Origin: Bacilli bacterium
GTDB lineage: Bacteria > Bacillota_I > Bacilli_A > RF39 > UBA660
Direction of reading: 5' to 3'
Assembly (NCBI GenBank): GCA_045638205.1
Contig: JAZUAY010000171.1
Coordinates: 1-26,357 of the forward strand
Length of the DNA: 26,357 bases
Shown piece by piece: positions 1,137 through 18,493 of this stretch (position 1 is the stretch's first letter; every line of letters starts with the position of its first letter). A program made the translations under genes and the position numbers. Below the pieces are notes generated by a model. The model did no database searches, was not told where the DNA came from, and saw only the letters and a program-made list of their open reading frames with translations.

Positions 1137-1139
1137 TTT

Positions 1140-1228: not shown

Positions 1229-1250
1229 TTGATGAAAGTAGTGATATAAA

Positions 1251-1895: not shown

Positions 1896-1897
1896 TT

Positions 1898-2684: not shown

Positions 2685-2718
2685 AAGAAAGTATAATATA
2701 TTAAAAAGAGGCGATAAA

Positions 2719-3080: not shown

Positions 3081-3303
3081 AGGAGTAGATATAAATGAAT
3101 AATAATGAAAATGTTGCTAAAACCAATATCAACTGGTTGATATTGATTTAGTCTAAGTTTCATTCAAACTCCTATAAAATAAAGAAAAAACAAGTATATG
3201 CTTGTTACATAATTTAATAAAAATATATAGAAATAATTATAAAAATAACTAAAAAAGCATCAAAAATGGCATAGTATTTGATACTTGGTATTGACGGTTA
3301 AAG
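3081..3303 (+). repeat. Junction J1: rbgA 5' remnant (MNNNENVAKTNINW) + S1 + type-A leader + S2
   Basis: RBS aggag 3081, ATG 3095, TGG 3134-3136. S1 TTGATATTGATTTAGTCTAAG at 3137, S2 TTGGTATTGACGGTTAAAG at 3285. Confidence 0.9.
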
Positions 3304-3365
3304 AGGTGTAAGTATGAAAATATATGGTATAATATTAATTGTCAGATAAATGAAAGGATGATATT

Positions 3366-3614
3366 ATGAAGAGTGCTGAAGAATTTATGAATGAGTTTAT
3401 GAGTACTTTACATAACATGAAAAAGTATCAGCGAATAGACATTACTAGACCAGAAACATATTCCGGAGATTTTGATAAAGTTCATGATGCATTTGATATT
3501 GAAAAAAATGTAGTTGCTACAGTTAAAGCTGAAGAAATATCTAATGTTGTTGCAGATTCACCTAAATTATTAAGACTTACCAATAAAAAAAATAATTTAT
3601 CAATTGAATCGTAA
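3366..3614 (+). CDS. Hypothetical 82-aa protein (copy 1)
   Basis: ORF with RBS aaagga and upstream TGgTATAAT. Near-identical copy at 6273-6521 (2 aa differences). Confidence 0.7.
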   Translation: MKSAEEFMNEFMSTLHNMKKYQRIDITRPETYSGDFDKVHDAFDIEKNVVATVKAEEISNVVADSPKLLRLTNKKNNLSIES

Positions 3615-3633
3615 GATTAAGATATTGCGCTTT
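3606..3633. repeat. 28-bp 11-6-11 imperfect palindromic site (family 2)
   Basis: GAATCGTAAGA-TTAAGA-TATTGCGCTTT. It overlaps the stop codon of the 82-aa gene. Confidence 0.75.
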
Positions 3634-3747
3634 GCCATATTACCAGGCAATTCTTATGGCTAGCTTGTTGTTTATTTAGTCTAAGGTAAATAATTAATAT
3701 AAAATGGGACGAAACTATACTAAATTTCGCCTTTTTTATGCTATAAT
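3634..3747 (+). repeat. Cassette tail: inverted rbgA PGHMA half-site (X) + S3 + extended -10 promoter
   Basis: GCCATATTACCAGG at 3634 (reverse complement CCT GGT AAT ATG GC). S3 TTGTTGTTTATTTAGTCTAAG at 3665. GCCTTTTTTATGCTATAAT at 3729-3747. Confidence 0.85.
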
Positions 3748-3757
3748 TGAATAGAAA

Positions 3758-3975
3758 TGGAGTGATTCCTATGAATAATAAAACTAATATAAATTGCTTG
3801 AGCATGATTTATCTAACCCCTTTAACAAATCCTTATAAAATAAGGGAAAATTGATAATTTGATCTTACATCTTTTATATAAAAAGTAAGTAAAAATGTAC
3901 AAAAAACACCAAAAATCATTAAAAATGGAGCTTTTTTTATATATTTTTGATAAGGTGATGTTTCCCGCTAACCCC
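3758..3975 (+). repeat. Junction J2: rbgA 5' remnant (MNNKTNINC) + S1 + type-B leader + S2
   Basis: ATG 3771, TGC 3795-3797. S1 TTGAGCATGATTTATCTAACCCC at 3798, CCTTATAAAATAAGG box, S2 GTGATGTTTCCCGCTAACCCC at 3955. Confidence 0.9.
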
Positions 3976-4007
3976 ACCATAAAATAGGGATTTATAAAAT
4001 TATAAGT

Positions 4008-4035
4008 AAATCGTAAAATAGTAATATTACGATCT
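4008..4035. repeat. 28-bp 11-6-11 palindromic site (family 2) upstream of the ABC-F gene
   Basis: AAATCGTAAAA-TAGTAA-TATTACGATCT. The arms are 9/11 complementary. Confidence 0.75.
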
Positions 4036-4210
4036 TTTGTCAATATAAAAAATATAGTATAATATATATGACATATAAGTGCACAATTAATAATTCTACA
4101 TATAATTAAAGAAAGAGAAAAGTCAGTGAATTATATTTTTTAGCAATTGACAAATATTGAAAAATTTAAAATTTAATGATAGTATAAAAAACTAAATAAG
4201 AGGTGATAGC

Positions 4211-5704
4211 ATGTCAACAATAAGTGTAAGCAATCTTACATTTGGTTACGACGGGGGATACACTAACATCTTTGAAAACGTTTCATTTAATATAGATTCT
4301 AATTGGAAATTAGGATTTGTTGGAAGAAATGGTAGAGGTAAAACAACTTTTTTAAATTTATTACTAGGTAAATATGAATATCAAGGAACAATTAAATCGG
4401 ATTTGATATTTGATTATTTTCCATTTGAAATAAAAGATAAATCAAAAAATTCTTATGAAATAGCAGAAGAAATAGTACCGTATTTTGAAACTTGGAAATT
4501 AAATTGTGAGATTTCTCAATTAGGAATGGACTTAAGCATATTAGAAAGATCATTTGAAAATCTAAGTAAAGGAGAACAAACACGAGTTTTACTTGGATTG
4601 ATGTTTTCTAAAGATAATAACTTTTTACTTATAGATGAACCTACTAATCACTTAGATATTGAGGCAAGAAAAATTGTCGCTGATTATTTAAATAGTAAAA
4701 AAGGGTTTATTTTAGTTTCTCATGATAGGCGCTTTTTGGATAATTGCATAGATCATGTTTTATCCATTAATAAAACTAATATTGAAGTTCAAAAAGGGAA
4801 TTTTAGTTCATGGTGGGAGAATAAGCAAAGACAAGATAATTTTGAGTTAAATCAAAATGAAAAATTAAAAGGTGAAATATCTAGATTAGAAAAATCTGCT
4901 AGACAAACAGCAAATTGGTCTGATAAAGTAGAAAAAAGTAAATATAATATTAAACAAGGTGTTGTACCAGATAAAGGTTATATTGGACATAAAGCTGCTA
5001 AAATGATGAAAAGATCTTTAGTTGCACGCAATCATAAAGAAAAAGCAATTGAGGAAAAATCAAAATTATTAAAAAATATAGAAACAATGGAAGAACTAAA
5101 AATTAGTCCAACAATTTATAGGAGTAATAAACTGTTGGAAGTATCAAATCTTAGTGTTAATTATGGAGATAGAGATTTATTTGATAAAATTAGTTTTTCA
5201 GTAAATAGGGGAGATAGAATTGAACTAAAAGGAAAAAATGGTTCTGGAAAATCTAGTTTAATCAAATTGCTTTTAGGGCAAAAAATAAAGTACAATGGTG
5301 AACTGTATTTACCCAATGATTTAAAAATTTCATATGTTTCACAAGATACGTCTTATTTAAAAGGAAATTTAAAAGATTTTATAATGGATAATAATATAGA
5401 TGCCACATTATTTATGTCAATATTAAGAAAATTAGATTTTGATAGAAAAGAATTTGATAGAAATATTGAAAGTTATAGTGAAGGCCAAAAAAAGAAAGTA
5501 TTATTAGCTAAGAGCTTATCTGAACAGGCTGATTTATATGTATGGGATGAACCGTTAAATTATATAGATATTTATTCAAGACTACAGATTGAAAATTTAA
5601 TTTTAGATTATAATCCTACGATGATATTTGTGGAACATGATGAAACATTCTCAGATAAGATTGCAACAGATAAAATAGAGATAAAAAACACATCGCAATA
5701 TTAA
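4211..5704 (+). CDS. lsa: Lsa-family ABC-F ribosomal protection ATPase
   Basis: Two ABC domains (GRNGRGKTT, GKNGSGKSS; LLIDEPTNHLD, YVWDEPLNYID). The N-terminus (NIFENVSFNIDSNWKLGFVGRNGRGKTTFLNLLLGKY) and linker (DKGYIGHKAAKMMKR) closely resemble Lsa(E)/Lsa(B) as recalled. The allele cannot be assigned without a search. Confidence 0.8.
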   Translation: MSTISVSNLTFGYDGGYTNIFENVSFNIDSNWKLGFVGRNGRGKTTFLNLLLGKYEYQGTIKSDLIFDYFPFEIKDKSKNSYEIAEEIVPYFETWKLNCEISQLGMDLSILERSFENLSKGEQTRVLLGLMFSKDNNFLLIDEPTNHLDIEARKIVADYLNSKKGFILVSHDRRFLDNCIDHVLSINKTNIEVQKGNFSSWWENKQRQDNFELNQNEKLKGEISRLEKSARQTANWSDKVEKSKYNIKQGVVPDKGYIGHKAAKMMKRSLVARNHKEKAIEEKSKLLKNIETMEELKISPTIYRSNKLLEVSNLSVNYGDRDLFDKISFSVNRGDRIELKGKNGSGKSSLIKLLLGQKIKYNGELYLPNDLKISYVSQDTSYLKGNLKDFIMDNNIDATLFMSILRKLDFDRKEFDRNIESYSEGQKKKVLLAKSLSEQADLYVWDEPLNYIDIYSRLQIENLILDYNPTMIFVEHDETFSDKIATDKIEIKNTSQY

Positions 5705-5753
5705 GATATTAGGAATTGAGAAATCAGTTCCTTTTTTAGTAATCTTACGATGT
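5690..5753. repeat. 64-bp composite: family-2 half-sites in inverted orientation around a terminator-like hairpin
   Basis: ACATCGCAATA-TTAAGA...AGGAATTGA-GAAA-TCAGTTCCT-TTTTT...TAGTAA-TCTTACGATGT. It overlaps the ABC-F stop codon. Confidence 0.8.
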
Positions 5754-5801
5754 ATTAAAAAATAATAAAGTATGATATAATACCAATAGGTTGGTGATAT
5801 T

Positions 5802-6140
5802 ATGAAACATGAAATGAAATTAAATAATGGTCCTTTTATGAATATTAAAAATGGTACTAAGACAATTGAGTTAAGATTAAATGATGAGAAAAGGAAATTG
5901 TTAAAAATAAAAGATTTAATTGAATTTACTAATAGGGAAACATTGGAACAATTGTTAGTAGAAATAGAAAATCTATATCATTATCCTTCATTTGAAGAAT
6001 TATATAAACACTTTGATAAAGTTGCTATGGGATATAAGGAAGATGAAGAAGCTGATCCAAAAGACATGGAAGAATATTATTCAAAAGAAGAACAAGAAAA
6101 ATATGGAGTTTTAGGAATTGAAATAAAAAAAGTGAGATAA
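5802..6140 (+). CDS. ASCH/PUA-like domain protein (copy 2)
   Basis: 100/112 aa identical to 2719-3057 (counted by eye). Confidence 0.85.
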   Translation: MKHEMKLNNGPFMNIKNGTKTIELRLNDEKRKLLKIKDLIEFTNRETLEQLLVEIENLYHYPSFEELYKHFDKVAMGYKEDEEADPKDMEEYYSKEEQEKYGVLGIEIKKVR

Positions 6141-6211
6141 TCGTAAGATTAAGATATTCCAGTACATTAAGATGAGAAATTATCTCATCTTTTTTAGTAA
6201 TATTGCGATGT
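6138..6211. repeat. 74-bp composite: family-2 half-sites in inverted orientation around a terminator-like hairpin
   Basis: TAATCGTAAGA-TTAAGA...AAGATGAGA-AATTA-TCTCATCTT-TTT...TAGTAA-TATTGCGATGT. Confidence 0.8.
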
Positions 6212-6272
6212 AATTAAATAATGAAAATATATGGTATAATATTAATTGTCAGATAAATGAAAGGATGATATT

Positions 6273-6521
6273 ATGAAGAGTGCTGAAGAATTTATGAATG
6301 AGTTTATGAGTACTTTAGATAACATGAAAAAGTATCAGGGAATAGACATTACTAGACCAGAAACATATTCTGGAGATTTTGATAAAGTTCATGATGCATT
6401 TGACATTGAAAAAAATGTAGTTGCTACAGTTAAAGCTGAAGAAATATCTAATGTTGTTGCAGATTCACCTAAATTATTAAGACTTACCAATAAAAAAAAT
6501 AATTTATCAATTGAATCGTAA
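6273..6521 (+). CDS. Hypothetical 82-aa protein (copy 2)
   Basis: Part of a duplication of ~3315-3800 at ~6222-6707. Confidence 0.7.
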   Translation: MKSAEEFMNEFMSTLDNMKKYQGIDITRPETYSGDFDKVHDAFDIEKNVVATVKAEEISNVVADSPKLLRLTNKKNNLSIES

Positions 6522-6540
6522 GATTAAGATATTGCGATTT
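6513..6540. repeat. 28-bp 11-6-11 palindromic site (family 2)
   Basis: GAATCGTAAGA-TTAAGA-TATTGCGATTT, directly abutting X at 6541. Confidence 0.75.
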
Positions 6541-6654
6541 GCCATATGACCATGCAATTCTTATGGCTAGCTTGGTGTTTATTTAGTCTAAGGTAAATAA
6601 TTAATATAAAATGGGAGGAAACTATATAAAATTTCGTCTTTTTTATGCTATAAT
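6541..6654 (+). repeat. Cassette tail: X + S3 + extended -10 promoter
   Basis: GCCATATGACCATG at 6541. S3 TTGGTGTTTATTTAGTCTAAG at 6572. TGcTATAAT ending at 6654. Confidence 0.85.
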
Positions 6655-6664
6655 TGAATAGAAA

Positions 6665-6885
6665 TGGAGTGATTACTATGGATAATAAAACCAATATTAA
6701 CTGGTTGATTTCAATTTAATTAAGAGCACTCCTAAAACCATATAATATAAGGGAAAATGTAAAAATACATCTTACATGTTTTTAATAAAAATAGTTAAAA
6801 AATACTAAAAAATAGCAAAATAAGTTAAAAATAAGTAAATTTTTACTAAGAAGTTGCAAGGTGATTACAAAAGTTAAGAACATAT
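6665..6885 (+). repeat. Junction J3: rbgA 5' remnant (MDNKTNINW) + S1 + type-B leader + S2
   Basis: ATG 6678, TGG 6702-6704. S1 TTGATTTCAATTTAATTAAGAGCA at 6705, S2 GTGATTACAAAAGTTAAGAACA at 6861. Confidence 0.9.
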
Positions 6886-6902
6886 AAAGAAGAGGTGAAT
6901 TT

Positions 6903-7580
6903 ATGAAATATATAATGCAAAATAATGAATCAAATTATAATGAAGTAATAGCTAATATTATTAATAATAGAAAAAAAGAAATATTTTCTTTTTTTAACAG
7001 TAAGGAAATTGATTTACCAGTTACTATATATGTTTATAATAGCATTGAAGAATTAGTTAATGGAATGAGAAAAAGAGGATACAAAAATGATCCTGACTAT
7101 ATGTGTGCATGCCAAAAAGATGAAGATAATTCTTTAAATTATTTTGAACCTAGGGATAATCCAGGTGAAAAGGAATGGTCAAAAGAAGAGTATAAGAATG
7201 TAATATTTCATGAATTAATTCATTGTATACAATTTAATCTATTTGGAACTACTCTTGAATGGATAAATGAAGGAATAGCTAAATATTTAGATGGTACATA
7301 TTCAAAAGGAATTAAATGGTTATTAGATAATTATATAAATAATAATCCGATTCCTAATCAAGATGAGATAGAGAATGAATTTGGTATGCATGAATATGAT
7401 AGTTATGATTATGCATATTTAATGGTAAGTTATATAATTGATTATTATGGTAAAGATACATTGATTGATTTATTGAAAAATAAAGAAAAATATGAAACTA
7501 TAAAAAAAGATTTATTAATAAAATCAATTGATTATTATAATATGAAATATAATGAAGAAAGTTTTTTTAAAAGTATATAA
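6903..7580 (+). CDS. Putative zinc metallopeptidase (HExxH, gluzincin/peptidase MA-like)
   Basis: IFHELIHCIQ followed by WINEGIAKYL. Confidence 0.7.
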   Translation: MKYIMQNNESNYNEVIANIINNRKKEIFSFFNSKEIDLPVTIYVYNSIEELVNGMRKRGYKNDPDYMCACQKDEDNSLNYFEPRDNPGEKEWSKEEYKNVIFHELIHCIQFNLFGTTLEWINEGIAKYLDGTYSKGIKWLLDNYINNNPIPNQDEIENEFGMHEYDSYDYAYLMVSYIIDYYGKDTLIDLLKNKEKYETIKKDLLIKSIDYYNMKYNEESFFKSI

Positions 7581-7607
7581 AACTTTCTTTTTATTTATAA
7601 TTATTAA

Positions 7608-7723
7608 TTGGCCATATGACCTGGTGAGAATTTTAAAATAACTGATTACGCAATATTTAAGAACATATAAATGACATAAATTTAGACAAATTAGTACAAA
7701 ATCTGCCTTTTTTATGCTATAAT
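7608..7723 (+). repeat. Cassette tail: X + S3 + extended -10 promoter
   Basis: The reverse complement of 7608-7624 is CCAGGTCATATGGCCAA, a 16/17 match to rbgA 17654-17670. S3 TGATTACGCAATATTTAAGAACA at 7643. GCCTTTTTTATGCTATAAT at 7705-7723. Confidence 0.9.
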
Positions 7724-7756
7724 TTTAATGATTTTAAATCGAGAAAGTGATGTTAC

Positions 7757-8191
7757 ATGGAATTAAATGAATATATGAATCAAGATGTTTTTAATCCAAA
7801 ATATTTATTTCACGGAACAGCTCATGAAATAGATAAATTAGAATTAAGACAATCAACTGATAATGAAAATAAAGATAATGAAGACAATGCAATATTTTTA
7901 ACTAGTTCAATCTATACTGCAGCGGCTTATGCTTTTAGTAGACGATTGAAAGAACAAAATGAGAATTATTCATTTTCTATGAATAATAATGGAGAATTAC
8001 CAGCAATGGTATTTGAAGTAGAAAATTTACCAGATGATTTATGTGGTTATATTTATATTTTTGAAAAAAGTGAAGATATGATTAAAGATAATCACGAGTT
8101 CACAACTCAATATAGATGCTATCATGATTTAACACCACAAAAAGTTATTAAAGTTAATTATAGAGATTTTGAAGAATTTTTCAGCAGATAA
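7757..8191 (+). CDS. Hypothetical protein, possible ADP-ribosyltransferase-like fold
   Basis: YLFHGT...AIFLTSSIYTAAAYA resembles the H-G-T / Y(F)-x-T strands of ART-fold proteins. This is motif-level evidence only. Confidence 0.45.
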   Translation: MELNEYMNQDVFNPKYLFHGTAHEIDKLELRQSTDNENKDNEDNAIFLTSSIYTAAAYAFSRRLKEQNENYSFSMNNNGELPAMVFEVENLPDDLCGYIYIFEKSEDMIKDNHEFTTQYRCYHDLTPQKVIKVNYRDFEEFFSR

Positions 8192-8217
8192 AATTAAACT
8201 AAAAAAATATAGATTTA

Positions 8218-8385
8218 AAGGAGTTGATTCAAATGAATGAAAATAAAACTAATATAAACTGGTTGTAGTGATTAACATCTTTCATGTTATGATAAAATAT
8301 AGTTAAATTTAATAAAAAAAGATCAAAAATGATTAAAATATGTTAAATATTATGTAGGAATTAAGGTATTGATTACGATACAGTA
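8218..8385 (+). repeat. Junction J4: rbgA 5' remnant (MNENKTNINW) + shortened leader + S2
   Basis: AAGGAGTTGATTCAA-ATG 8233, TGG 8260-8262. The leader lacks ~50 bp including the CCTTAT box. S2 TTGATTACGATAC at 8369. Confidence 0.85.
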
Positions 8386-8412
8386 ACTAATTCGTGATGG
8401 GAGGAAATTATA

Positions 8413-8583
8413 GTGAATATAGTTGAAAAAGTGCAGTTTTTAAAGAATTATAAGAAAAATTTAGAAACAACTGCAAAACTTGTTGAAAGATTTAAATTAA
8501 AGGGCGATTTAACTCGTAGTATTGATGATACTATAGGGTATTTAGAAAAAGAAAAAATAAAAATTAAATATAAAGTAAAGTGA
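8413..8583 (+). CDS. Small hypothetical protein, 56 aa (MNIVEKVQFLKNYKKNLETTAKLVERFKLKGDLTRSIDDTIGYLEKEKIKIKYKVK)
   Basis: GTG start with GGAGG RBS. It fills the cargo slot between J4 and J5 and is below the ORF-track cutoff. Confidence 0.6.
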   Translation: MNIVEKVQFLKNYKKNLETTAKLVERFKLKGDLTRSIDDTIGYLEKEKIKIKYKVK

Positions 8584-8587
8584 AATT

Positions 8588-8811
8588 AAGGAGTTGATTC
8601 AAATGAATGAAAATAAAACTAATATAAATTGCTTGATTACGATTTATTTAACCCCTTTAAGAACTTCTTTATTTACAAGGCTTTGTGAGAATTAGCATCT
8701 TGCATGTTTTATATAAAAATATGTTAAATAGATAAAAATTAGTAAAAGATGACTATTTTTAGTTAAAAATGTTGTAGGAATTAATGAGGTGATTACACCT
8801 TTTAACCCCTA
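8588..8811 (+). repeat. Junction J5: rbgA 5' remnant (MNENKTNINC) + S1 + type-B leader + S2
   Basis: ATG 8603, TGC 8630-8632. S1 TTGATTACGATTTATTTAACCCCT at 8633, S2 GTGATTACACCTTTTAACCCCT at 8789. Confidence 0.9.
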
Positions 8812-8832
8812 GATAAAAATGAGGTGAAGTGT

Positions 8833-9405
8833 ATGTCCAAAATATCTAAAAATATTAAAATGCTAGATATATTATCATCTGGGAAAATATATAGTTGTAA
8901 GAAACTAGCAGAAATGTTAGAAGTTAGTCCAAGAACAGTTAGACAATATAAAGATGAATTAGAAAAAGAAGGATTATATATTGAAAACATAATGGGTAAA
9001 AATGGTGGATATAGACTTTGCTCTAAAGTTGAAATACCTTCTATTTTGTTTAATAAAAATGATATAGATAAAATTAATTCAATAATAGATAAATTATCCG
9101 ATGATGATAAAAATAAATTAGAGAATATTAAAGAAAAAATTAATACTTACTGTAGATTAGTAAGTGATAGAGATAACATAAATATTGAAGATAAAAATAA
9201 AATAGATATAATACAAAATGCAATTAATAATAAGAAAAAAATTACTATAGAATACTATAGTAAAGGAATTAAAAAATCAAGAGATATATTGCCAATTCAA
9301 ATATATGTATATGAAAATATGATTATGGTAGTTGTTCATTATTCGGATGATCCAAGTGACATAAGACATTTAAATTTAAAAAGAATCGAAAAAATAATTA
9401 TATAG
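8833..9405 (+). CDS. HTH (wHTH) + WYL domain transcriptional regulator, short form
   Basis: N-terminal LAEMLEVSPRTVRQYKDELEKEG...GKNGGYRL (YafY/PafB-type HTH). C-terminal AINNKKKITIEYYS...RDILP...IRHLNLKRIEKI (WYL). RBS gaggtg before ATG 8833. Confidence 0.8.
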   Translation: MSKISKNIKMLDILSSGKIYSCKKLAEMLEVSPRTVRQYKDELEKEGLYIENIMGKNGGYRLCSKVEIPSILFNKNDIDKINSIIDKLSDDDKNKLENIKEKINTYCRLVSDRDNINIEDKNKIDIIQNAINNKKKITIEYYSKGIKKSRDILPIQIYVYENMIMVVVHYSDDPSDIRHLNLKRIEKIII

Positions 9406-9551
9406 CAAAAGTACTTCCTACATTAGTGTTTATAATGAGTATAGAACATCTGGTAAAAGTCAATAGGTAATCGGCAGTTTTTTTGGAATAGTTTACTGCC
9501 TTATCAACAAAATTATTGCACACTAAAACGATTTTAGTATAAACTAAAATT

Positions 9552-9583
9552 ATTGATTCGCTATTTATAAATAGCGAATCAAT
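9552..9583. terminator. Perfect 32-bp palindrome at the transposase stop
   Basis: ATTGATTCGCTATTTA|TAAATAGCGAATCAAT. Confidence 0.65.
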
Positions 9584-10859
9584 CGTTCTTTGAATTTTGA
9601 ACCGAGTCAATTGGTTTGTAATATTGATTTTTTCGCAGCAATCCAAAAATCAATCTTGCAAGTTTACGAGCAGATAAAACGAGTGCACGTTTATGTTGAT
9701 GTTTAGAAACTTCCTTAAATTTAAGATCATAATAATCTTTAATAAAAGGAAAGTTTTGTCTAACACAAGAAGCAGTAGCTTCAACTAAATAATATCGTAA
9801 ATATTTATTAGACTTTTTAGAAGATTTCTTATCCTGAGAATCGAATTCTCCAGACTGATTTCTTTTCCAATAAAGTCCAGAATATTTAGCAATTTTTGAG
9901 TTATGAGGAAATCTTTCAATATTACCAATTTCAGCCATAATACCAGCAGCATAGACTTTACCAATACCACGAATAGAAAGTAAGATATTATAGGTATTGG
10001 AATCAAGTCCTAAAGCAGTTGATAAAATAGCTTTATCAATATTCTTAAGTTGTTTTTGATAAAATTTAATAGTATTTAAAGAAGAAGCAATGGCAATATT
10101 GATTGGTTCATAAGCAGTTTGATCTAATCTGTAAGAAGCATGCATGGCTTTATTTAAAGTAGTAATCTTATCATCTACATTAGAAATATGATTTTTACTT
10201 TTTTCAGAAATAAAGTTAATTAAATCTTCTACAGATGAAGATGCAATAACATCTGGAGATACAAATTCTTCTAGAAAAGCGGAAGATGTAGCACCAAATA
10301 GGTCAGAAAAAGGTATATCATTTTTGTTACAAGAAACTAATCCAGAAAAAGATAAATATAAATTAGTTAAAATATAAGTCTTTTCTTTTATTAAGTTTTT
10401 ACAAATATGATATCTTTGTCTAGTAAGACGTTGAAGTGCAATGTATTGAGAACCTTTAAATGGATATAAAGCTTTAGTTCTGCCGACTCTTCCATAGTCA
10501 GCAAGAATATAAGCATCAATACCATCTTCTTTTTCTAAATCATGAAAACTTTTCTTATATTTATCAAAATCACAAGCATTGATTTGATAAACTTCAGTAT
10601 GAAAATTATTTAAATATTCATTAGAAGAAAGATAACAAGCAGGATGAAAAGAATACATGCCAGTAGATTCCATAACAATGATAATTTTATCAAAGAATAA
10701 TGTATCTTCAATATCTTTAATTTTATTAATAACCATATCGTTTCCTTCTGGATTATTGGGAAACTTAAGGTTAAAATAAATATGTTGATCAAAATTCATA
10801 ACGCAAAACTGATTACCTTTAAGACCTACATCAACACCAATGAACAAAGAGTTTTGCAT
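9579..10859 (-). CDS. IS110-family (DEDD) transposase/recombinase
   Basis: N-terminal FIGVDVG and VMESTGMY (RuvC-like DEDD), KEDGIDA..LA. C-terminal SIRGIGKVYAAGIMAEIGNIERF...YSGL...QSG...SNKYLRYYLVEA. ATG 10859 has RBS aggtgg. Confidence 0.95.
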   Translation of the reverse strand: MQNSLFIGVDVGLKGNQFCVMNFDQHIYFNLKFPNNPEGNDMVINKIKDIEDTLFFDKIIIVMESTGMYSFHPACYLSSNEYLNNFHTEVYQINACDFDKYKKSFHDLEKEDGIDAYILADYGRVGRTKALYPFKGSQYIALQRLTRQRYHICKNLIKEKTYILTNLYLSFSGLVSCNKNDIPFSDLFGATSSAFLEEFVSPDVIASSSVEDLINFISEKSKNHISNVDDKITTLNKAMHASYRLDQTAYEPINIAIASSLNTIKFYQKQLKNIDKAILSTALGLDSNTYNILLSIRGIGKVYAAGIMAEIGNIERFPHNSKIAKYSGLYWKRNQSGEFDSQDKKSSKKSNKYLRYYLVEATASCVRQNFPFIKDYYDLKFKEVSKHQHKRALVLSARKLARLIFGLLRKNQYYKPIDSVQNSKND

Positions 10860-11250
10860 AAGTATCACCACCTTTCGATAAAATATTTTGTGAAACATAA
10901 TAAACTACAGATACCCTTGCTTAAAAGTTTGACAACAACCTCGTTATAAGAATACATCTTTTGTTTAAGGATAATGTGCTGCGATTAAACTTAAAAAGAG
11001 AAACATCATCTGAGTTAGAAGGATGATAACTCATAAGTAGGGAAACATTCTAAACTAGTAAACATCATAAAGAGTTACAGGAGGGTTAAGAATAGATCCT
11101 AGTTATTATATTTCAATAAAATATAATAACACAAGGGTAAAAATAATCCATAGTTTTTACTATTTTTACTTATAAAAATAGAATAAATAAAAATAGTTAA
11201 TATAAGTGAAAAAATCACTTACAAAAACTATTATACGAGGAGGTATTTTT

Positions 11251-11601: not shown

Positions 11602-11713
11602 CCATATGGCCAGGTAATGTTATGATAAAAATTGATTACACTTAATTTAACCTATAATAAATGACATAAATTTAGACAGATTAGTACAAAATCTGCCTTT
11701 TTTATGCTATAAT
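11600..11713 (+). repeat. Cassette tail: X + S3 + extended -10 promoter
   Basis: The reverse complement of 11600-11614 is CCT GGC CAT ATG GCT (PGHMA, fully synonymous with rbgA). S3 TGATTACACTTAATTTAACC at 11633. GCCTTTTTTATGCTATAAT at 11695-11713. Confidence 0.9.
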
Positions 11714-11729
11714 TTTATTAATTTTATAA

Positions 11730-11895
11730 AAGGAGTTGAGTGGGATGAACGAAAATAAAACAAATATCAATTGGTTGGCTTGTATTTATGACGCACATCA
11801 CTTAAACCCATATAAAATGGGAACTTTTAAGAAATGAGATCTTGCAAGTTTTAATAAAAAAAGTAGTAAAAAATGAAAAAATAGATTAAAAATTA
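11730..11895 (+). repeat. Junction J6: rbgA 5' remnant (MNENKTNINW) + S1 + leader truncated before S2
   Basis: ATG 11745, TGG 11772-11774, CCCATATAAAATGGG box, GATCTTGCAAG box. The leader then runs into a BRO fragment. Confidence 0.85.
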
Positions 11896-11901
11896 CTCAT
11901 T

Positions 11902-12171
11902 GAAATAAGAAGTATTTGGAATTCTGAAAAAGAAGAATATTATTTTAGTGTAGTTGATGTTATTGCTGCATTAACTGATAATGATTATGATAAATCTAGA
12001 AATTATTGGAAATGGTTAAAAACTAGACTAAAAGATGAAGGCAGTGAATTGGTTAGTGATACTAACCAGTTGAAAATGAAAGCTAAAGATGGAAAAATGA
12101 GAGAGACAGATACTCTTGATACAGAAGGAATATTTAGATTAATAGAATCTGTTCCATCCAGTAAAGCGGAA
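11902..12171 (+). pseudogene. BRO-N domain fragment lacking a start
   Basis: EIRSIWNSEKEEYYFSVVDVIAALTD...RNYWKWLKTRLKDEGSE...LKMKAKDGKMRETD...RLIESVPSSKAE. Homologous to the N-half of 19507-20205. Confidence 0.85.
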
Positions 12172-12473
12172 GTGTTTTGTATAAAATGACATTGAATAAA
12201 AATATACAAGATATACTTTATTTTAAAGGAATTGTTGATTTTTATAAAGATTATGTAAAACTAGATATTACTGATAAAAAAGATAATCAAAACAATTGGA
12301 ATGTTATAGTATCAGTTTTAAGATAATCAAAGTGTCGTGTTCTTGTAATCATATAATTCGATAAATAAGTATGATTGTAAAAGTAAAAATATTAATTTTG
12401 ATTAGTTGCAACGTAAGGTATGTTTAATTACATATCTTTTTTTGTTGTGTAAAAAAGAAAGGAGAAATGATAT

Positions 12474-12821
12474 ATGGAATTAAATTATGCAATATTTAGA
12501 AGTGAACCTATTATGACTATACCTGATTTAGCACAAATAGGATCACATAATAAAAGGGAAAAGAAAGTGTATCAATCAAATAAAGATATTAAAATAGAAT
12601 TAAGTAAAAACAACATAGAACTTGTTCCTTTAAATGTTAAATATGTAAAAGGTTTTGATGAACTAACTAAAGAATATAAAAAAGAACACGAAGAAAGAAT
12701 GAAAACTGAACGAGCTGATAGAAAGAAAAGATACCATGAAATGTTAAATAGTTCTAAAAATGTTGTTGCTGATGAATTAGTTATGACTGCTTCACATAAT
12801 TTCTTGCTAGGTGAAATTTGA
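12474..12821 (+). pseudogene. Truncated MobV/Pre (Mob_Pre) relaxase N-terminus
   Basis: YAIFR...SHNKR...SNKDIKIELSKNNIELV...VVADELVMTAS resembles MOBV motifs I and II. It ends before the HxDExxPHxH motif. Confidence 0.65.
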
Positions 12822-12846
12822 CATTCATGCCTTTTTATGCTAGAAT
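12818..12846 (+). promoter_or_regulatory. Sigma70-type promoter related to the cassette-tail promoter
   Basis: TTGACA-17 bp-TAGAAT with a TG extension. The spacer GCCTTTTTATGC resembles the tail promoter. Confidence 0.6.
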
Positions 12847-12909
12847 ATAAGCCAATTTCAGCGAGAAGTATGTATTACTTAAATTATTATTTTCAATAAA
12901 TTATGGGGG

Positions 12910-13650
12910 TTGATTATAATGAAAAAGAATAAAAATATTGAAATGCGTATATATGAATTATTAGGGGTTAAAGTTTTTAGAAAAATGGCATTTGGTTTGC
13001 GTGATATATTAGCATTTCCATTAACTATTAGAATGAGTAAAGAAGAGAGACATAACTTTCTATATAATAGAGAAGGTAATTATAATTTAGGAAAAGTAAA
13101 AAGTTTAGAGGACGTTAAAAAATTTAAAAAACAATTGTTTATAAATTCAGGTATTCATGTATGGGCATTATCAGTTTGCCTTCCTAACTTTTTAAAAGTA
13201 ATTGGTGGTACTGCATCTTTATCTACAGCTATAATAACTTTAACTTGTATAGGTATAAATCTATACTGTATTATGCTACAAAGATATAATGGTATTAGAA
13301 TTACTCAACTTATTGAAAAAATGACTCCAAGATATGAAAGACAAAAAGATGCAATTAAAGAAGAACTAAGAAAAGAAGATTCATTACTTTTAGAACATAC
13401 ATATAAAATTGTAGATAAAAAAGAAAGAGAAACTAGTATAACTTTTGATGATTTAATTGCTAATGCTAATATTGAGCAACTTAAACAATATCGTGAGTAT
13501 TTAGCACATTTTCAAAATATTAATCAATTAATACAAGAAAATGATATCTCTGCTGAACATCAAGTAGTTGTAAGTATGCCAATGGAAAAACATAAAACAC
13601 TTAAATTGGAATTAAAACCTAATAAACATAACAACGGTGCTATTAATTAG
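12910..13650 (+). CDS. Membrane protein, possibly CrtO-like (glycosyl-4,4'-diaponeurosporenoate acyltransferase family)
   Basis: YELLGVKVFRKM...IHVWAL, a hydrophobic segment, then INLYCIMLQRYNGIRI. Motif recall only; the start codon is uncertain. Confidence 0.45.
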   Translation: MIIMKKNKNIEMRIYELLGVKVFRKMAFGLRDILAFPLTIRMSKEERHNFLYNREGNYNLGKVKSLEDVKKFKKQLFINSGIHVWALSVCLPNFLKVIGGTASLSTAIITLTCIGINLYCIMLQRYNGIRITQLIEKMTPRYERQKDAIKEELRKEDSLLLEHTYKIVDKKERETSITFDDLIANANIEQLKQYREYLAHFQNINQLIQENDISAEHQVVVSMPMEKHKTLKLELKPNKHNNGAIN

Positions 13651-13726
13651 CACTTTTGTTTTATAAAAAACTTATTTGATGACAAATAAGTAACACACTA
13701 CCAAGTCGGCATTTTGCCAACTAGGA

Positions 13727-14287
13727 TTGTGTGCCAAAGGAGAGCCTTTTAAGATGTGGTTAGCATCATTAGGTAAAGAAAGAATTGATGAGGTATTTGA
13801 TCCTGAAATAGCAGTTAATAGGGCTGTAGAATATTATCGCAAAAGAGGTTATGATGATAAATGGATTAAATCAAGATTAACTGGGATAGTTGATAGATTT
13901 AAATTAACTGATGTATGGAAAGAATCTGGAATTACAAAAGATTATGAATATGGAATTTTAACTAATGAAATATATAAATCATGGTCAGGAATGAAGGCAA
14001 GTGAATATAAAGCATACAAAGGTCTTAGAAAAGAATCATTAAGAGATAATATGACAGATATTGAAGTTGCATTAACGGATTTGGGTGAAATAGCAACAAG
14101 AGAACTAGCAAAAGAACATAAACCATATGGATTAGAACAAAATAAAAGAATAGCACGACGAGGTGGTAATATAGCAAAAATAACTAGAGATAATTTAGAA
14201 AAAGAATTAGGTAGAACTGTAATCAGTAATAAGAATTCATTAAATTATGAATATATAGATGAAAAATTATTAGAAGAAAAGAATTAG
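13727..14287 (+). pseudogene. BRO-family gene, C-terminal half
   Basis: KGEPFKMWLASLGKERIDEVFDPEIAV...KESLRDNMTDIEVALTDLGEIATRELAK. Homologous to the C-half of 19507-20357. The N-half is absent here. Confidence 0.85.
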
Positions 14288-14289
14288 AT

Positions 14290-14344
14290 AAATAACATAA
14301 ATTTAGACAGATTAGTACAAAATCTGCCTTTTTTATGCTATAAT
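14290..14344 (+). repeat. Partial cassette tail (promoter part only; no X or S3)
   Basis: AAATAACATAAATTTAGACAGATTAGTACAAAATCTGCCTTTTTTATGCTATAAT matches the tails at 7670-7723 and 11660-11713. Confidence 0.85.
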
Positions 14345-14359
14345 TTTAATGATTTTAAA

Positions 14360-14582
14360 AAGGAGTTGATCCAAATGAACGAAGAAAAAGGGTTAAATAA
14401 AACCGTAATCAACTGGTTGGTATTGATTTAGTCAAAGTATTTGAGAAGCTCCTATAAAATAAGGATTAAACAAGTATAAGCTTGTTACATAATATAATAA
14501 AAATATATAAAATAATGATAAAAATAGCTAAAAAAGTATCAAAAATAACATACTATTTGATACTTGGTATTGACGGTTAAAC
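14360..14582 (+). repeat. Junction J7: rbgA 5' remnant (MNEEKGLNKTVINW) + S1 + type-A leader + S2
   Basis: ATG 14375, TGG 14414-14416. S1 TTGGTATTGATTTAGTCAAAG at 14417, S2 TTGGTATTGACGGTTAAAC at 14564. Confidence 0.9.
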
Positions 14583-14605
14583 TTTTAAAAAACGAGGTGA
14601 TTTAT

Positions 14606-15184
14606 ATGAGTAAGATAGCAATTGATATTGATAATACAATTTGTAATACAAGTGATTTCTTTGGACCAATCGCAGAGAACTATGATAGAAATGTATTGCA
14701 TAAAAATAATGATATTAATTATGATAAAACAGTTCCTAGAAGTGATAATTGGACAAAAGAAGAACTTGCTTATTTTGTAGAAAACTATTTTAATAAAGAA
14801 GCTATAAATATTCCTATTAAAAAAGATGCTGTTATTTACATTAACAAACTTAAAGAATTAGGATTTGAAATAGTATTCATTACAAATAGAGGAATTAAAG
14901 AAGATGATCATTCTGATTTAATAGTTCCTGAATATTTAGAAAAAAATAATATTCCTTATGATAGTATAATTACTAAATCAAATGATAAATATATGTATTT
15001 AGAGGACTGTGCTTATTTTATAGATGATGCAATTCGTAATTGCGAACAAGCATTAGAAAAATCAAATGTTAAAGTAATCATGATGAGAACAAATAAAACA
15101 AAGAATTATGTTAATGAAGATATTTTAATAGTTAATAGCTGGGAAGAAATATATAACTATATAAAGCAATATAAAAGGAGGTAA
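14606..15184 (+). CDS. HAD-superfamily hydrolase (5'-nucleotidase-like)
   Basis: IAIDIDNTI (DxDxT), FITNRG, FIDDA. RBS gaggtg before ATG 14606. Confidence 0.8.
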   Translation: MSKIAIDIDNTICNTSDFFGPIAENYDRNVLHKNNDINYDKTVPRSDNWTKEELAYFVENYFNKEAINIPIKKDAVIYINKLKELGFEIVFITNRGIKEDDHSDLIVPEYLEKNNIPYDSIITKSNDKYMYLEDCAYFIDDAIRNCEQALEKSNVKVIMMRTNKTKNYVNEDILIVNSWEEIYNYIKQYKRR

Positions 15185-15245
15185 TAATCATGAACGATAA
15201 TAAAACTAGTATAAACTGGTTGATTATGACAGTTAAGAACATTGT
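15177..15245 (+). repeat. Junction J8: rbgA 5' remnant (MNDNKTSINW) with collapsed leader (S1/S2 hybrid)
   Basis: ATG 15190, TGG 15217-15219, then TTGATTATGACAGTTAAGAACATT running straight into the cargo RBS. Confidence 0.85.
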
Positions 15246-15263
15246 AAAAATGAGGTGGTCATA

Positions 15264-15806
15264 ATGGAAAATCTTGGTTTAGAAAGAGGATATTTAGAAT
15301 TACATGATTATAGAAAAGATTATCCTTCGATTTATGAAAAGGCAAAAGAAGAATTGTTAGATATTTATAAAGATAGAATTAAATATATTGACCATGTTGG
15401 GAGTACTAGTATAAAAGGAATTAAATCTAAACCTATTATTGATATCAATATTCAAACAGATGATTTAGATGATTTTAAAGAGTATACTGAATCTACTGTT
15501 GAGGGTGACATTTATACTGTAAAAAAAGAACCAACTTTAGGTGGAGATTATTTAATTAGAAAAGAAGAAGATGGAAAAGTAAAAGCATTTATACATGTCT
15601 ATAAAACTGGTGATATGAATGGCATAACTTCGATTATGTTTAGGGATTATATGAATTCACATGAAGATGAAGCGAAAAGATATGAAGCTTTAAAAATGGA
15701 ATTATATGATAAGTATAAGGATAACAGAAAAGAATATACACATGGAAAAGATAAGTATATTAAAGAAATAATAGCATTAGCCATGAAAGAAAAAAATAAA
15801 ATTTAG
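15264..15806 (+). CDS. GrpB-family nucleotidyltransferase-fold protein
   Basis: IDHVGSTSIKGIKSKPIIDINI...FRDYMNSH...YEALKMEL...YTHGKDKYI. Confidence 0.85.
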   Translation: MENLGLERGYLELHDYRKDYPSIYEKAKEELLDIYKDRIKYIDHVGSTSIKGIKSKPIIDINIQTDDLDDFKEYTESTVEGDIYTVKKEPTLGGDYLIRKEEDGKVKAFIHVYKTGDMNGITSIMFRDYMNSHEDEAKRYEALKMELYDKYKDNRKEYTHGKDKYIKEIIALAMKEKNKI

Positions 15807-15834
15807 GACATTGTAATTCTTTACTACTATATTT

Positions 15835-15948
15835 AGCCATATGACCATGCAACTAATTTAAAAAATTTGATTACATAATATTTAAGAACATATAATTGTT
15901 ATAAAATTAGACAGATTAGTACAAAAACTGCCTTTTTTATGCTATAAT
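15835..15948 (+). repeat. Cassette tail: X + S3 + extended -10 promoter
   Basis: GCCATATGACCATG at 15836. S3 TGATTACATAATATTTAAGAACA at 15868. GCCTTTTTTATGCTATAAT at 15930-15948. Confidence 0.9.
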
Positions 15949-15964
15949 TTTAATGATTTTAAAA

Positions 15965-16187
15965 AAGAGTTGATCCAAATGAATGAAAATAAAACAAATA
16001 TAAATTGGTTGATAACAATTTAGTCAAGACTACTCCTAAATCCTTATAAAATAAGGGGAAACTGAAAAATAGGTCTTGCATGTTTATGTCAAAATATATT
16101 AAAAATTGATGAAAATAAGTTAAAAAAGAGTAATTTTAAGTAAAAATTGCCTAGGAATTAATATAGTGAGAACTGATAGTCAAGACC
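15965..16187 (+). repeat. Junction J9: rbgA 5' remnant (MNENKTNINW) + S1 + type-B leader + S2
   Basis: ATG 15979, TGG 16006-16008. S1 TTGATAACAATTTAGTCAAGAC at 16009, S2 GTGAGAACTGATAGTCAAGAC at 16166. Confidence 0.9.
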
Positions 16188-16209
16188 AGCAAAAAAAGAG
16201 GTGATTATT

Positions 16210-16668
16210 TTGAAACGTAGTGCAGGTATTTTAGTTTATAAAATTGAGAAAAATGATATAAAAGTCTTACTTTGTCATTTTGGTGGACCATATTGGGAAA
16301 ATACTGATATTGGTGGATGGACTCTTTCAAAAGGTGAGGTTAGTAAAGGCGAAAAAGTATTAGAAACTGCGAAGAGAGAATTTATAGAGGAAACAAATTT
16401 AAATTTAACTGCTCCGATTGATTATCTTGGAACAAAGAAAATTAGTAGAAAAAAGTTAGCAATAATGTTTTATACTAATTCTGATTTTGAACTTTCTAAT
16501 TGTAAAAGTAATACTTTTGAACTTGAATTTCCAAAAGGTTCTGGTAATATAAAGTCATTTCCTGAAATGGATAAATATGAATGGATGAATCTTAATGATG
16601 CTAAGAAAAAAATAATAAAAAATCAGTTGTATTTTTTAAATAAATTAGAAGAAAAAATAGCCAGGTAA
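16210..16668 (+). CDS. NUDIX hydrolase
   Basis: SAGILVYK...HFGGPYW...GGWTLSKGEVSKGEKVLETAKREFIEETN. TTG start at 16210 after RBS agaggtg. Confidence 0.85.
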   Translation: MKRSAGILVYKIEKNDIKVLLCHFGGPYWENTDIGGWTLSKGEVSKGEKVLETAKREFIEETNLNLTAPIDYLGTKKISRKKLAIMFYTNSDFELSNCKSNTFELEFPKGSGNIKSFPEMDKYEWMNLNDAKKKIIKNQLYFLNKLEEKIAR

Positions 16669-16876
16669 TACTCATGAATGAAAATAAAACTAATATAAAC
16701 TGGTTGATTACGATTTATCCAAGAATAGTAGAAAACCTATATAAAATAAGGAATTGTGAGATATAACATCTTGCACGTTTTATATAAAAATATGTTAAAA
16801 CACGCAAAAATTAGTAAAAAATGGACATTTTTGATGTAAAAAGTGGTAGGAATTATGAAGGTGATTTCGCCACCTA
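16660..16876 (+). repeat. Junction J10: rbgA 5' remnant (MNENKTNINW) + S1 + type-B leader + S2
   Basis: ATG 16674, TGG 16701-16703. S1 TTGATTACGATTTATCCAAG at 16704, S2 GTGATTTCG at 16861. Confidence 0.9.
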
Positions 16877-16911
16877 ATAATAAGAAATAATTTGAATACG
16901 GAGGTGATACT

Positions 16912-17634
16912 ATGATTAATAAACCCATTATAGGAGTGGTAAGTAAACCAAATATTTTTTGCAGTGATAAATTATTTACCTCACAATTTGTTTATGATGG
17001 TGTTAGAAATGCAGTATTAAAAAATGGAGCACTTGTTATAGGAATACTACCAACAAAAATATCTACTGTATTTTGTGATTCAGATGAAGTAGTAAATAAG
17101 TCTGATTTTTCACAATCTGAATTAGAGGATTTATATTCATTAATTGATAGATGCGATGGTATAATAATTCAAGGTGGTTTATCTAGTGATGCTTATGAAA
17201 TAAAAGCAGCTAAGTATGCTATAGATAATGATATACCAATACTTGGAATATGTGCAGGATTTAATAATATTATTAGAGCAATGGGTGGTGAAGTTTTTTG
17301 TATTAATAATACAATTCATAATACTGAAGATGGTTCAATAGTTCACAAAAATATAGTTAAAGAAAATACTTTGTTATATGATATTTTAAAAAAGAAAGAA
17401 GTAGATGTTAATAGTATTCACACAATGTTTGCTAATGAAGAAAATATTAAAAATATGATTATTTCAGCGTATTCTGATGATGGCTATGTTGAAGCAGTAG
17501 AAATAAAAGATAAAAAGTTTTGTTTGGGTGTTAAATGGCATCCGGAATTAATGTTAGAAAATGAACAAATGAATAATATATTTAAATATTTTATTGATGT
17601 ATGCAAAGGAGTTGATCCAAATGAACGAAAATAA
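16912..17634 (+). CDS. Gamma-glutamyl-gamma-aminobutyrate hydrolase family (peptidase C26, class I glutamine amidotransferase-like)
   Basis: CDGIIIQGG, PILGICAGFN (nucleophile Cys), VNSIH, GVKWHPE. Confidence 0.9.
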   Translation: MINKPIIGVVSKPNIFCSDKLFTSQFVYDGVRNAVLKNGALVIGILPTKISTVFCDSDEVVNKSDFSQSELEDLYSLIDRCDGIIIQGGLSSDAYEIKAAKYAIDNDIPILGICAGFNNIIRAMGGEVFCINNTIHNTEDGSIVHKNIVKENTLLYDILKKKEVDVNSIHTMFANEENIKNMIISAYSDDGYVEAVEIKDKKFCLGVKWHPELMLENEQMNNIFKYFIDVCKGVDPNERK

Positions 17635-18493
17635 AACTAAGATAAATTGGTATCCAGGGCATATGGCCAAAACTAAAAGAGAAATAAAAGAAAGATTAAA
17701 TTTAATAGATGTTGTTTATGAAGTAATAGATGCTAGAATGCCTATATCTTCAAAAATAGTAGATATAGATGATTTATTAAAAAACAAAAAGAAGATTTTA
17801 ATTTTATCAAAGTATGATTTATGTGACAAAACTGAGACTGATAAATTCATAAAATATTATGAAGCTAAAGGTTATATTGTAATTCCAAGTGATCTTATTA
17901 ATGGTAATATTACAAAAATTCTTGATACTACTGAAAATTTAATGAAAGAAGAATTTGAAAAACGCGAAGCTAAAGGTCTTAATAAGAGAAATATTAGAGT
18001 ATTAGTAATAGGCGTACCTAATGCTGGTAAGTCAACCTTAATTAATAGACTTGTTGGTAAGAAAAGTGCAGGTGTAGGTGCCCGTCCTGGCTTTACTAAA
18101 CAACTTTCTTGGATAAGAGTTGGTAAAAATATTGAACTTTTAGACTCTCCTGGTATTTTATGGCCTAAATTTGAAAATCAAGAACATGCTAAAAACCTAG
18201 CAAGCTTGGCATCTATAAAACAAGAAGTTATTAATGAACTTGATTTAAGTGCATATATATTAAGGAAAATGGATATATTATACCAAGATAATTTATATAA
18301 TAGATATGGTATAAAAAATCTAAGTGAAGATTTAATAAAAGAATTAGATATAATTGCATCTAAAAGAGGAGCTTTAAGAAAAGGTGGTATTGCAGATTAT
18401 GATAAAGTAAGTAAACTCATTATAAAAGATTTACAAGATGGATATTTAGGTAAAATTACTTTTGATAGAATTAAAGAGGTAAAAGATGAATAA
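17621..18493 (+). CDS. rbgA: Ribosome biogenesis GTPase RbgA/YlqF
   Basis: [56 protein letters not shown] 17621 has RBS aaggag. Confidence 0.97.

Follow-up and report, generated by a model that had tools for sequence, protein, structure and literature searches.

The window analysed here is a stretch of 26,357 nucleotides (nt) and constitutes an entire contig (C171) of a metagenome-assembled genome of a Bacilli bacterium (1.24 Mb in 199 contigs, 26.6% GC, 94% complete). It carries a tandem array of short, mostly gene-bearing units that abuts the 5' end of rbgA, the gene for a ribosome-biogenesis GTPase. Our analysis indicates that these are small integrative units stacked at one attachment (att) site in the start of rbgA, and that they are probably moved by a clade of serine recombinases of 411 amino acids (aa). 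The phenomenon is real, extensive and found across the family to which the host belongs: it is a form of site-specific tandem accretion that resembles an integron in its outcome and a serine-recombinase system in its mechanism.

The intact rbgA gene (17621..18493, forward strand) lies downstream of ten truncated copies of its own 5' end, whose start codons are at positions 3095, 3771, 6678, 8233, 8603, 11745, 14375, 15190, 15979 and 16674. Each of these stranded copies retains a ribosome-binding site (RBS) and an N-terminus of the MN(E/N/D)NKTNINW type, with longer N-terminal variants encoded by two of them (MNNNENVAKTNINW at 3095 and MNEEKGLNKTVINW at 14375). A 30-mer taken from the rbgA start gave 5 matches at up to 3 mismatches, versus none in 100 shuffles, and the junction motif was not detected on the other contigs of the 1.24 Mb genome. 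A first-pass annotation of this window had listed the same ten start codons, all of them correctly, and had proposed that the copies leave rbgA at a single point. This fixed breakpoint is indeed seen in all ten: they read AAYTG(G/C)TTG at the position where the intact gene reads AATTGGTAT / AATTGGTATCCAGGGCATATGG, and their homology to rbgA stops after AAYTG(G/C)T, i.e. 1 nt past the Trp codon. A conserved leader of about 170–200 nt follows 8 of the 10 junctions; it carries an internal deletion behind the copy at 8233 and is reduced to about 40 nt behind the one at 15190. The earlier view that a unit usually holds one cargo gene is approximate: a single open reading frame (ORF) is present in 5 of the 10 units, none in one and two or three in the other four.

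The same site could be compared across related genomes, in which rbgA was recovered in 40 of the 40 relatives searched, with rplS and lepB as its conserved upstream neighbours. One of these relatives (G015) has an empty site, with a lepB–rbgA gap of only 40 nt and a native RbgA start. The distance from the same rplS/lepB anchor to rbgA grows to about 3 kb in G018, 8.8 kb in G021, 9.7 kb in G005 and 17.6 kb in G020, and the content of the arrays differs between genomes, in keeping with what the first-pass annotation had expected of such a comparison. Furthermore, the RbgA N-termini preceding the conserved INW|YPGHM segment are hypervariable even among close relatives (MNENKTN-, MDNRQNSTN-, MANEEKSFQKTS- and MSENQDKVFGKTS-), a pattern that swapping by insertions would produce. 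Congeneric species and members of other genera likewise have the junction TGGT|TGATTACGATTTA... upstream of rbgA. A strict version of the junction pattern was detected in 79 of 401 sampled genomes of the family, representing 68 of 214 genera, with a reversed-pattern control giving 9 matches; within a genome the matches are clustered and co-oriented (8 in G395, 11 in G066 and 8 in the window genome). The hosts are uncultured gut Bacilli with small genomes, with Candidatus Onthousia as the one named relative. No conspecific genome was found in the databases, and the window RbgA is unique in the protein collection, the next best match being 78% identical.

Evidence for movement comes from four pairs of loci that are at least 95% identical and break exactly at the junction. 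The first pair (L065/L066) is 99.9% identical over 6068 nt up to ...ATCAATTGGT (...AATTGGT), after which L066 continues into rbgA and L065 into a new unit. In L068/L095 a unit end is common to both loci, joined to rbgA in one and left stranded in the other. A 2.58-kb recombinase unit shared by L110 and L114 is 97.5% identical and has unrelated sequence on both flanks; the identity begins at the left TG and ends at ...AACTG on the right, and the unit adjoins rbgA in one genome and is internal in the other. The fourth pair (L067/L077) has a common recombinase unit with different left neighbours. These natural insertion polymorphisms end at TG. A TG is also invariant across 99 distinct stranded junctions, whose consensus is AAAACtAATATaAAc|TG|GTTGATtaCgATTTAt. 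Dyad symmetry in these junctions is maximal when centred on the TG (0.59 versus 0.18–0.46 at eleven other centres), and intact rbgA sites have no TG-centred dyad symmetry. The base after the TG in stranded copies is G, C or A and covaries with the subtype of the right arm, which places it on the cassette side. In units with minimal leaders, only about 25 nt to the right of the TG are always retained. Taken together, we infer that the crossover is at the TG of the rbgA Trp codon, and the junction, with about 40 bp forming a dyad around an invariant TG, has the predicted anatomy of a serine-integrase att site.

The recurrent enzyme of these arrays is encoded by the gene directly upstream of rbgA in G005 and G004; the product is 411 aa long and combines Resolvase, Recombinase and zinc-ribbon domains. 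In G012 and G010, the copies found upstream of rbgA are degraded, and pseudogenes or remnants of the recombinase are present in the arrays of G012, G010, G252, G333 and G246. In every public locus encoding a protein at least 38% identical to the 411-aa protein, the gene is followed by an rbgA 5' copy bearing the characteristic N-terminus, which is fused to the intact rbgA in some loci and stranded with further units downstream in others; thus, the recombinase rides in a unit and is not a fixed platform gene. Its stop codon is 90–100 nt from the Trp codon in several loci, and a Bro-N gene is its frequent partner in intact units. A profile search of the 401 family genomes separated this clade (at least 437 bits, in frames of about 410 aa) from generic serine recombinases (at most 402 bits, in frames of 520–550 aa). 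The clade was present in about 14 of the 401 genomes, and in at least 11 of these 14 it lies within 2.5 kb upstream of an rbgA 5' end. The strict junction motif occurs in 8 of the approximately 14 recombinase-positive genomes as against 71 of 387 others, though these are not phylogenetically independent observations. TnpX, SprA of SPbeta, XisF and CcrB are only remote relatives of the protein, which scores far below the curated cut-offs (for CcrA/B/C, 55–103 bits against cut-offs of 700–900); no close homologue was found in phage or plasmid records, the best being about 40% identical. The protein thus belongs to a distinct, previously undescribed clade of large serine recombinases, which is most likely the enzyme that inserts the units.

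Combining these observations, we propose the following mechanism. The attachment site would lie between lepB and rbgA, at the TG of the Trp codon that is conserved near the rbgA start. In its circular form, a unit would have some 40 bp of attP-like sequence, with a left arm that imitates the rbgA RBS and N-terminus and a right arm, GTTGAT-N5-ATTTA, that opens the leader of the unit. Upon integration, the old rbgA 5' end would be stranded upstream, and the replacement start brought in by the unit would be fused to the rest of rbgA. As each insertion would regenerate the target, units would stack with the newest next to rbgA. The first-pass annotation had already proposed this regeneration by a replacement start, and the presence of an RBS and N-terminus in every copy bears it out. 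Some units contain the recombinase immediately upstream of their rbgA 5' copy, and those devoid of it, including all ten of the window, would be either non-autonomous cassettes moved in trans or derivatives that have lost the gene. The recombinase would act on the junction sites by way of circular intermediates, with crossover at the TG and with mobilisation of such cassettes in trans. Since all left arms are homologous, the stranded junctions may be regarded as attP-like and the rbgA junction as attB-like, in which case the forward reaction might suffice to delete blocks adjacent to rbgA. This raises the possibility, which we regard as tentative, of a serine-recombinase counterpart of the integron, in the form of a gene-capture stack spread over the family: with rbgA as the sole attB-like site and attP-like stranded junctions, the forward reaction would both push units and pop blocks on a last-in, first-out basis, with single-gene cassettes moving in trans and each event swapping the promoter and N-terminus of rbgA.

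Two further observations bear on the variety of what may enter this site. A second junction type with the same TGGT breakpoint, reading TGGT|ATATACCGACTT... or TGGT|AAAGTACGACTTATATAAAC, was noted in L049 (G003), L046 (G010) and L108 (G325), and suggests a second attP family, perhaps with a second recombinase specificity, using the same crossover. A viral contig from IMG/VR (L136, 35% complete) encodes tail genes (Dit and a dockerin-bearing tail protein) and an APH-family phosphotransferase, followed by an rbgA 5' copy with a standard junction (site 7362-7381), about 200 nt from the end of the locus and with no recombinase in the assembled part. Prophage-sized units may therefore occur at the same rbgA site.

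Several results weigh against the movement of these units by the 411-aa clade. The genome of the window, though 94% complete, has no member of the clade, its best match being 30% identical; more generally, the recombinase is present in only 8 of the 79 motif-positive genomes, and most arrays are without one in the assembly. In no case did a complete recombinase-less unit turn up at high identity in two different contexts; what is shared is confined to 3' parts and leaders. Finally, a related recombinase-less species has an array (lepB, 110 aa, RhuM, UDG, Ham1p, rbgA) that is identical, gene decay aside, in at least 10 samples. The first version of this within-species test was biased, as it required the same unit-derived N-terminus, and a second one anchored on the array-independent RNase HII had the same outcome, with no polymorphism of the array across at least 10 samples. 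Hence, the turnover of arrays can be slow, and arrays can be long-lived and static; that of the window is probably frozen at present, its genome being without such a recombinase. The first-pass annotation had noted that the window holds no integrase, which is supported by domain searches of the ORFs, where an IS110 insertion was the only source of a recombinase, and by a tblastn search with the 411-aa protein, which detected no remnant. Its suggestion that a co-occurring recombinase be sought was answered in part: the 411-aa clade is present in the arrays of relatives, but not in the window's own genome.

These points lead to a rival explanation, namely that every unit arrived as an autonomous element with its own serine recombinase, which was later deleted, with no mobilisation in trans and no cassette biology. 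The recombinase pseudogenes and remnants in the arrays of five genomes listed above, the static arrays within a species and the retention, in unit 6 of the window, of a truncated gene for Bro-N, which often accompanies the recombinase in intact units, all agree with such an origin. However, no remnant of the recombinase is detectable anywhere in the window, and half of the units contain a single ORF, are about 0.7–1.3 kb long and have both arms complete, with empty units being as short as 157–370 nt; repeated clean deletion is hard to credit as the source of such units. The leaders are also 75–95% identical across genera with unrelated cargo, and on balance we consider this explanation unlikely. 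We see even less room for an integron-like or cis-mobilizable element (CIME)-type array served by a tyrosine integrase of the Tn5253 kind, which was the mechanism implied by the first-pass annotation. Streptococcal integrative and conjugative elements (ICEs) with tyrosine integrases have been shown to use the rbgA 5' end as their attB, with a repeat ending a few bases from the same Trp codon (PMC4701971, PMC6079316), and five tyrosine recombinase genes are present elsewhere in the genome. Nevertheless, there is no PF00589 match on the window contig, and no tyrosine recombinase was found among the window ORFs, among the recurrent cargo of the 86 units described below or in any array examined. 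The sole recurrent recombinase is of the serine type, the sites are short dyads around a dinucleotide and not attC hairpins or long arm-type attP sites, and conjugation genes are absent, which makes this mechanism very improbable.

A similarly low probability attaches to another possibility, in which the arrays grew for the most part through homologous recombination or gene conversion, with the repeated rbgA 5' ends and leaders as substrates. Units 1 and 2 of the window share a 300-nt block at 99% identity next to ASCH genes that are 87% identical, and the units of L068/L095 are mosaic, with only the 3' 1.1 kb being shared. Such exchange does not account for a breakpoint at a single dinucleotide in 99 junctions, for the empty site or for units running from TG to TG between unrelated flanks; it probably reshuffles the arrays secondarily. 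Xer/dif-type and tyrosine mechanisms were also considered as candidates and rejected, there being no supporting gene or site. Integration by the 411-aa serine recombinases remains the likely reading.

For a broader view of the units, we delimited 86 distinct ones from about 40 genomes. They range in length from 157 to 6320 nt, with a median of 1275 nt, and 157 of their 163 ORFs of at least 70 aa (96%) are co-oriented with rbgA. Just over half of the units (44 of 86) have a single ORF and 3 have none, and their cargo falls into 99 clusters, 78 of which are singletons. Between genomes, leaders and 3' ends are 75–95% identical and the cargo is unrelated; no whole-unit DNA is shared by the window and other genomes, the common parts being leaders and 3' modules only.

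The 3' module just mentioned is a segment of about 150 nt that ends six units of the window as well as units in four other genomes. Its hairpin shows compensatory base changes from copy to copy; a T6 run and an overlapping extended -10 box (TTTTTTATGCTATAAT) come next, and the RBS and the replacement rbgA start follow. This layout is that of a predicted terminator followed by a promoter, which would insulate rbgA and drive it anew. At its start, the module holds 17 nt that repeat, in inverted orientation, the part of rbgA just to the right of the crossover, with 13–16 of 17 positions matching in 10 of 11 modules, as against a background maximum of 11 outside module sites; examples of the inverted segment lie at 7607-7623, 11597-11613 and 15832-15848 in the window and at about 9652-9668 in L100. 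Where a module abuts the intact rbgA, in G397, the predicted fold, which would form in read-through RNA, pairs the inverted segment with rbgA codons 6–10 (z = -2.6). The leaders gave no Rfam match and no consensus fold as RNA elements. A general promoter scan found 149 sites versus 152 expected and is uninformative in such AT-rich DNA (27% GC).

The individual units of the window, all of them on the forward strand, were delimited and their cargo assigned using Pfam, NCBIfam and PADLOC. The first-pass annotation had begun the array at 3081. The leader profile hidden Markov model detects a partial leader without a preserved rbgA 5' copy at 1137..1246 (E 1e-8), upstream of a NUDIX gene (1251-1766). 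This leader and the presence of NUDIX, RhuM and ASCH cargo before position 3095 show that the array is larger and reaches the left contig edge as eroded units. Among this older cargo (1892..3057) are a frameshifted RhuM gene (1892-2684; PADLOC PDC-S05), which is recurrent cargo in the arrays of relatives, and an ASCH gene (2719-3057); it ends in rbgA copy 1 (3095..3137), whose Trp-codon TG is at 3134-3135. Unit 1 (3136..3797) consists of a leader, an 82-aa ORF (3366-3614), a long 3' module (3623-3769) and rbgA copy 2 (ATG 3771, a TGC variant). Unit 2 (3797..6704) has a leader, a Lsa-family ABC-F gene (4211-5704), an ASCH gene (5802-6140) and an 82-aa ORF (6273-6521), followed by a 3' module (6530-6674) and rbgA copy 3. 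The ABC-F protein scores 727 bits against a Lsa-family cut-off of 750 and passes the general model for ribosomal-protection ABC-F proteins, making it a candidate gene for resistance to lincosamides, streptogramin A and pleuromutilins.

Units 1 and 2 are further connected by a 300-nt repeat (3314-3613 versus 6221-6520) that is 99% identical and at which this metagenome-derived contig may contain a local assembly chimera; the array as a whole is not an artefact, as dozens of independent assemblies have the same architecture. The ASCH and 82-aa ORF pair occurs twice in this region (2710-3800 and 5793-6707), with the 82-aa blocks being 99% and the ASCH blocks 87% identical; the first pair is split by a complete junction and leader, and the second lies within one unit. 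This duplication points to recent conversion, fusion of two units or a local assembly chimera. Palindromic elements of about 60–80 nt were also observed at 5692-5752 and 6150-6218, directly after cargo stop codons, where they enclose an intrinsic terminator (ATCG.AA...hairpin + T-run...TAGTAAT.TT.CGAT), with left arms alone at 3608-3634 and 6515-6541.

Unit 3 (6704..8262) has a leader, a MA-type peptidase gene (6903-7580) and a 3' module (7605-7743) whose predicted promoter would drive the 144-aa ORF that follows (7757-8191), and ends in rbgA copy 4. The 370-nt unit 4 (8262..8632) is empty, with only the internally deleted leader and rbgA copy 5 (ATG 8603, a TGC variant). In unit 5 (8632..11774), the leader is followed by a gene for a WYL regulator with a helix-turn-helix domain (8824-9405), an IS110-family insertion, a VOC/glyoxalase gene (11206-11601), a 3' module (11596-11742) and rbgA copy 6. 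The transposase of the insertion is of the IS110 (DEDD) family and encoded on the minus strand (9579-10898), with a hairpin at 9552-9583; the WYL regulator beside it, which the insertion interrupts, is missing about 40 C-terminal profile positions, and two other copies of the family are present on contigs C14 and C178. As a candidate for the recombinase of the array this transposase was rejected, because it is a single reverse-strand insertion in one unit and is not found in other arrays. The best-matching public runs, from ruminant gut metagenomes, share at most 14% of the words sampled from the window, and the IS110 element is probably the part so shared (share ≤0.14). Unit 6 (11774..14416) has a leader, a 115-aa ORF, genes for a CrtO-like acyltransferase (12910-13650) and the truncated Bro-N protein (13727-14287), a 3' module (14220-14372) and rbgA copy 7. 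Unit 7 (14416..15219) carries a leader and a HAD-like hydrolase gene (14564-15184) before rbgA copy 8, and unit 8 (15219..16008) a minimal leader of about 40 nt (right half-site and RBS), a GrpB gene (15255-15806), a 3' module (15825-15976) and rbgA copy 9. Unit 9 (16008..16703) comprises a leader, a NUDIX hydrolase gene (16201-16668) and rbgA copy 10.

Unit 10 (16703..17650), which adjoins rbgA, has a leader and a gene for a class-I glutamine amidotransferase/peptidase C26 (16912-17634) that extends past the rbgA ATG. The functional rbgA owes its RBS and first 10 codons to the 3' end of this unit. Codons 1–9 of the intact gene are unit-derived, the conserved chromosomal part begins at ...GTATCCAGGGCATATGG (WYPGHM), and the crossover would lie at the TG of Trp10 (17648-17649). 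The cargo is diverse and co-oriented, in agreement with its first description. Beyond rbgA lies a gene for a RNase HII of 331 aa (18486-19481) with its domain limited to residues 141–315; a related species has a RNase HII of 211 aa, with a separate 264-aa ORF between it and rbgA. Downstream of this rnhB gene, and outside the array, is a Bro-N gene (19507-20205) that is 70–75% identical to recurrent cargo of relatives (G005, G002, G004 and G021) and to the truncated copy in unit 6.

To our knowledge, tandem stacking by serine recombinases at the end of a housekeeping gene is known essentially from the staphylococcal cassette chromosome (SCC) only, and we found no paper linking rbgA (ylqF) to a serine recombinase or to cassette arrays. 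The present arrays appear to be an independent version of such SCC-like stacking, with single-gene cassettes, a depth of at least 10 units, the 5' end of an essential gene as the target and a distribution over at least 68 genera. If the recombinase works as proposed, integron-like gene capture would have a second route that differs in mechanism, the hypervariable RbgA N-termini of the family would be explained, and a compact integrase of 411 aa with a defined ~40-bp site would be at hand. The arrays are also a reservoir of accessory functions in bacteria of the animal gut, including the candidate Lsa-family ABC-F resistance gene and candidate anti-phage genes.

Among known systems, the integron offers a functional analogy, and in this sense the description of the array as integron-like in the first-pass annotation is apt, but the analogy does not extend to mechanism. 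Like integrons, the rbgA arrays consist of mostly single, co-oriented and highly diverse cargo genes gathered at one site, with the newest adjoining it, and include empty units. Unlike them, they have no IntI and no fixed platform, the recombinase being itself a unit; their sites are double-strand-type dyads of about 40 bp around a TG and not folded attC hairpins; and most units have their own leader of 170–200 nt, with some also having their own predicted terminator-promoter module. Under the rules of serine integrases, internal units should not excise independently, unlike integron cassettes. The Tn5253-type ICEs use the same end of rbgA and restore its start, with a repeat whose end lies a few bases from the Trp codon discussed here. 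In Tn5253 this repeat spans 63 nt upstream and the first 20 nt of the coding sequence, and is served by a tyrosine Int with Xis (PMC6079316, PMC4701971). These are, however, single large conjugative elements with a tyrosine integrase and repeats of 83–84 bp, which leave the RbgA N-terminus unchanged and for which no stacking of miniature units has been described; none of the window ORFs encodes such an integrase, Xis or a conjugation module. The shared target is a case of convergence of unrelated enzymes on one conserved site. The accretion of CIMEs and integrative and mobilizable elements, and islands of the tycheposon type, similarly place att-flanked non-autonomous elements in tandem at the site of an autonomous relative, but by means of tyrosine recombinases and largely at tRNA genes or the 3' ends of genes, with elements of kb to tens of kb and few of them per site.

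By analogy, the closest counterpart is the composite SCC/SCCmec island and not the integron. In both, a large serine recombinase is carried by some units, many units have none, and tandem stacking occurs by insertion at a conserved housekeeping gene end that is regenerated each time, with resistance and defence candidates as cargo. Tandem SCC-like cassettes that are themselves ccr-less are mobilised by Ccr serine recombinases (PMC11470126). The window similarly has ten recombinase-less units in tandem, and the recombinase-bearing and recombinase-less units of its relatives share junctions. The position of the recombinase beside its att site, a general trait of serine-recombinase elements, is seen in relatives and not in the window. 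The rbgA arrays differ from SCC in that the target is the 5' end of rbgA and not the 3' end of rlmH (orfX), so that insertion gives an essential protein a new promoter, RBS and N-terminus; in their miniature units (median 1.3 kb, often with one gene) and arrays at least 10 deep; and in having a short 411-aa recombinase clade, far below the Ccr cut-offs, in uncultured gut Bacilli with small genomes.

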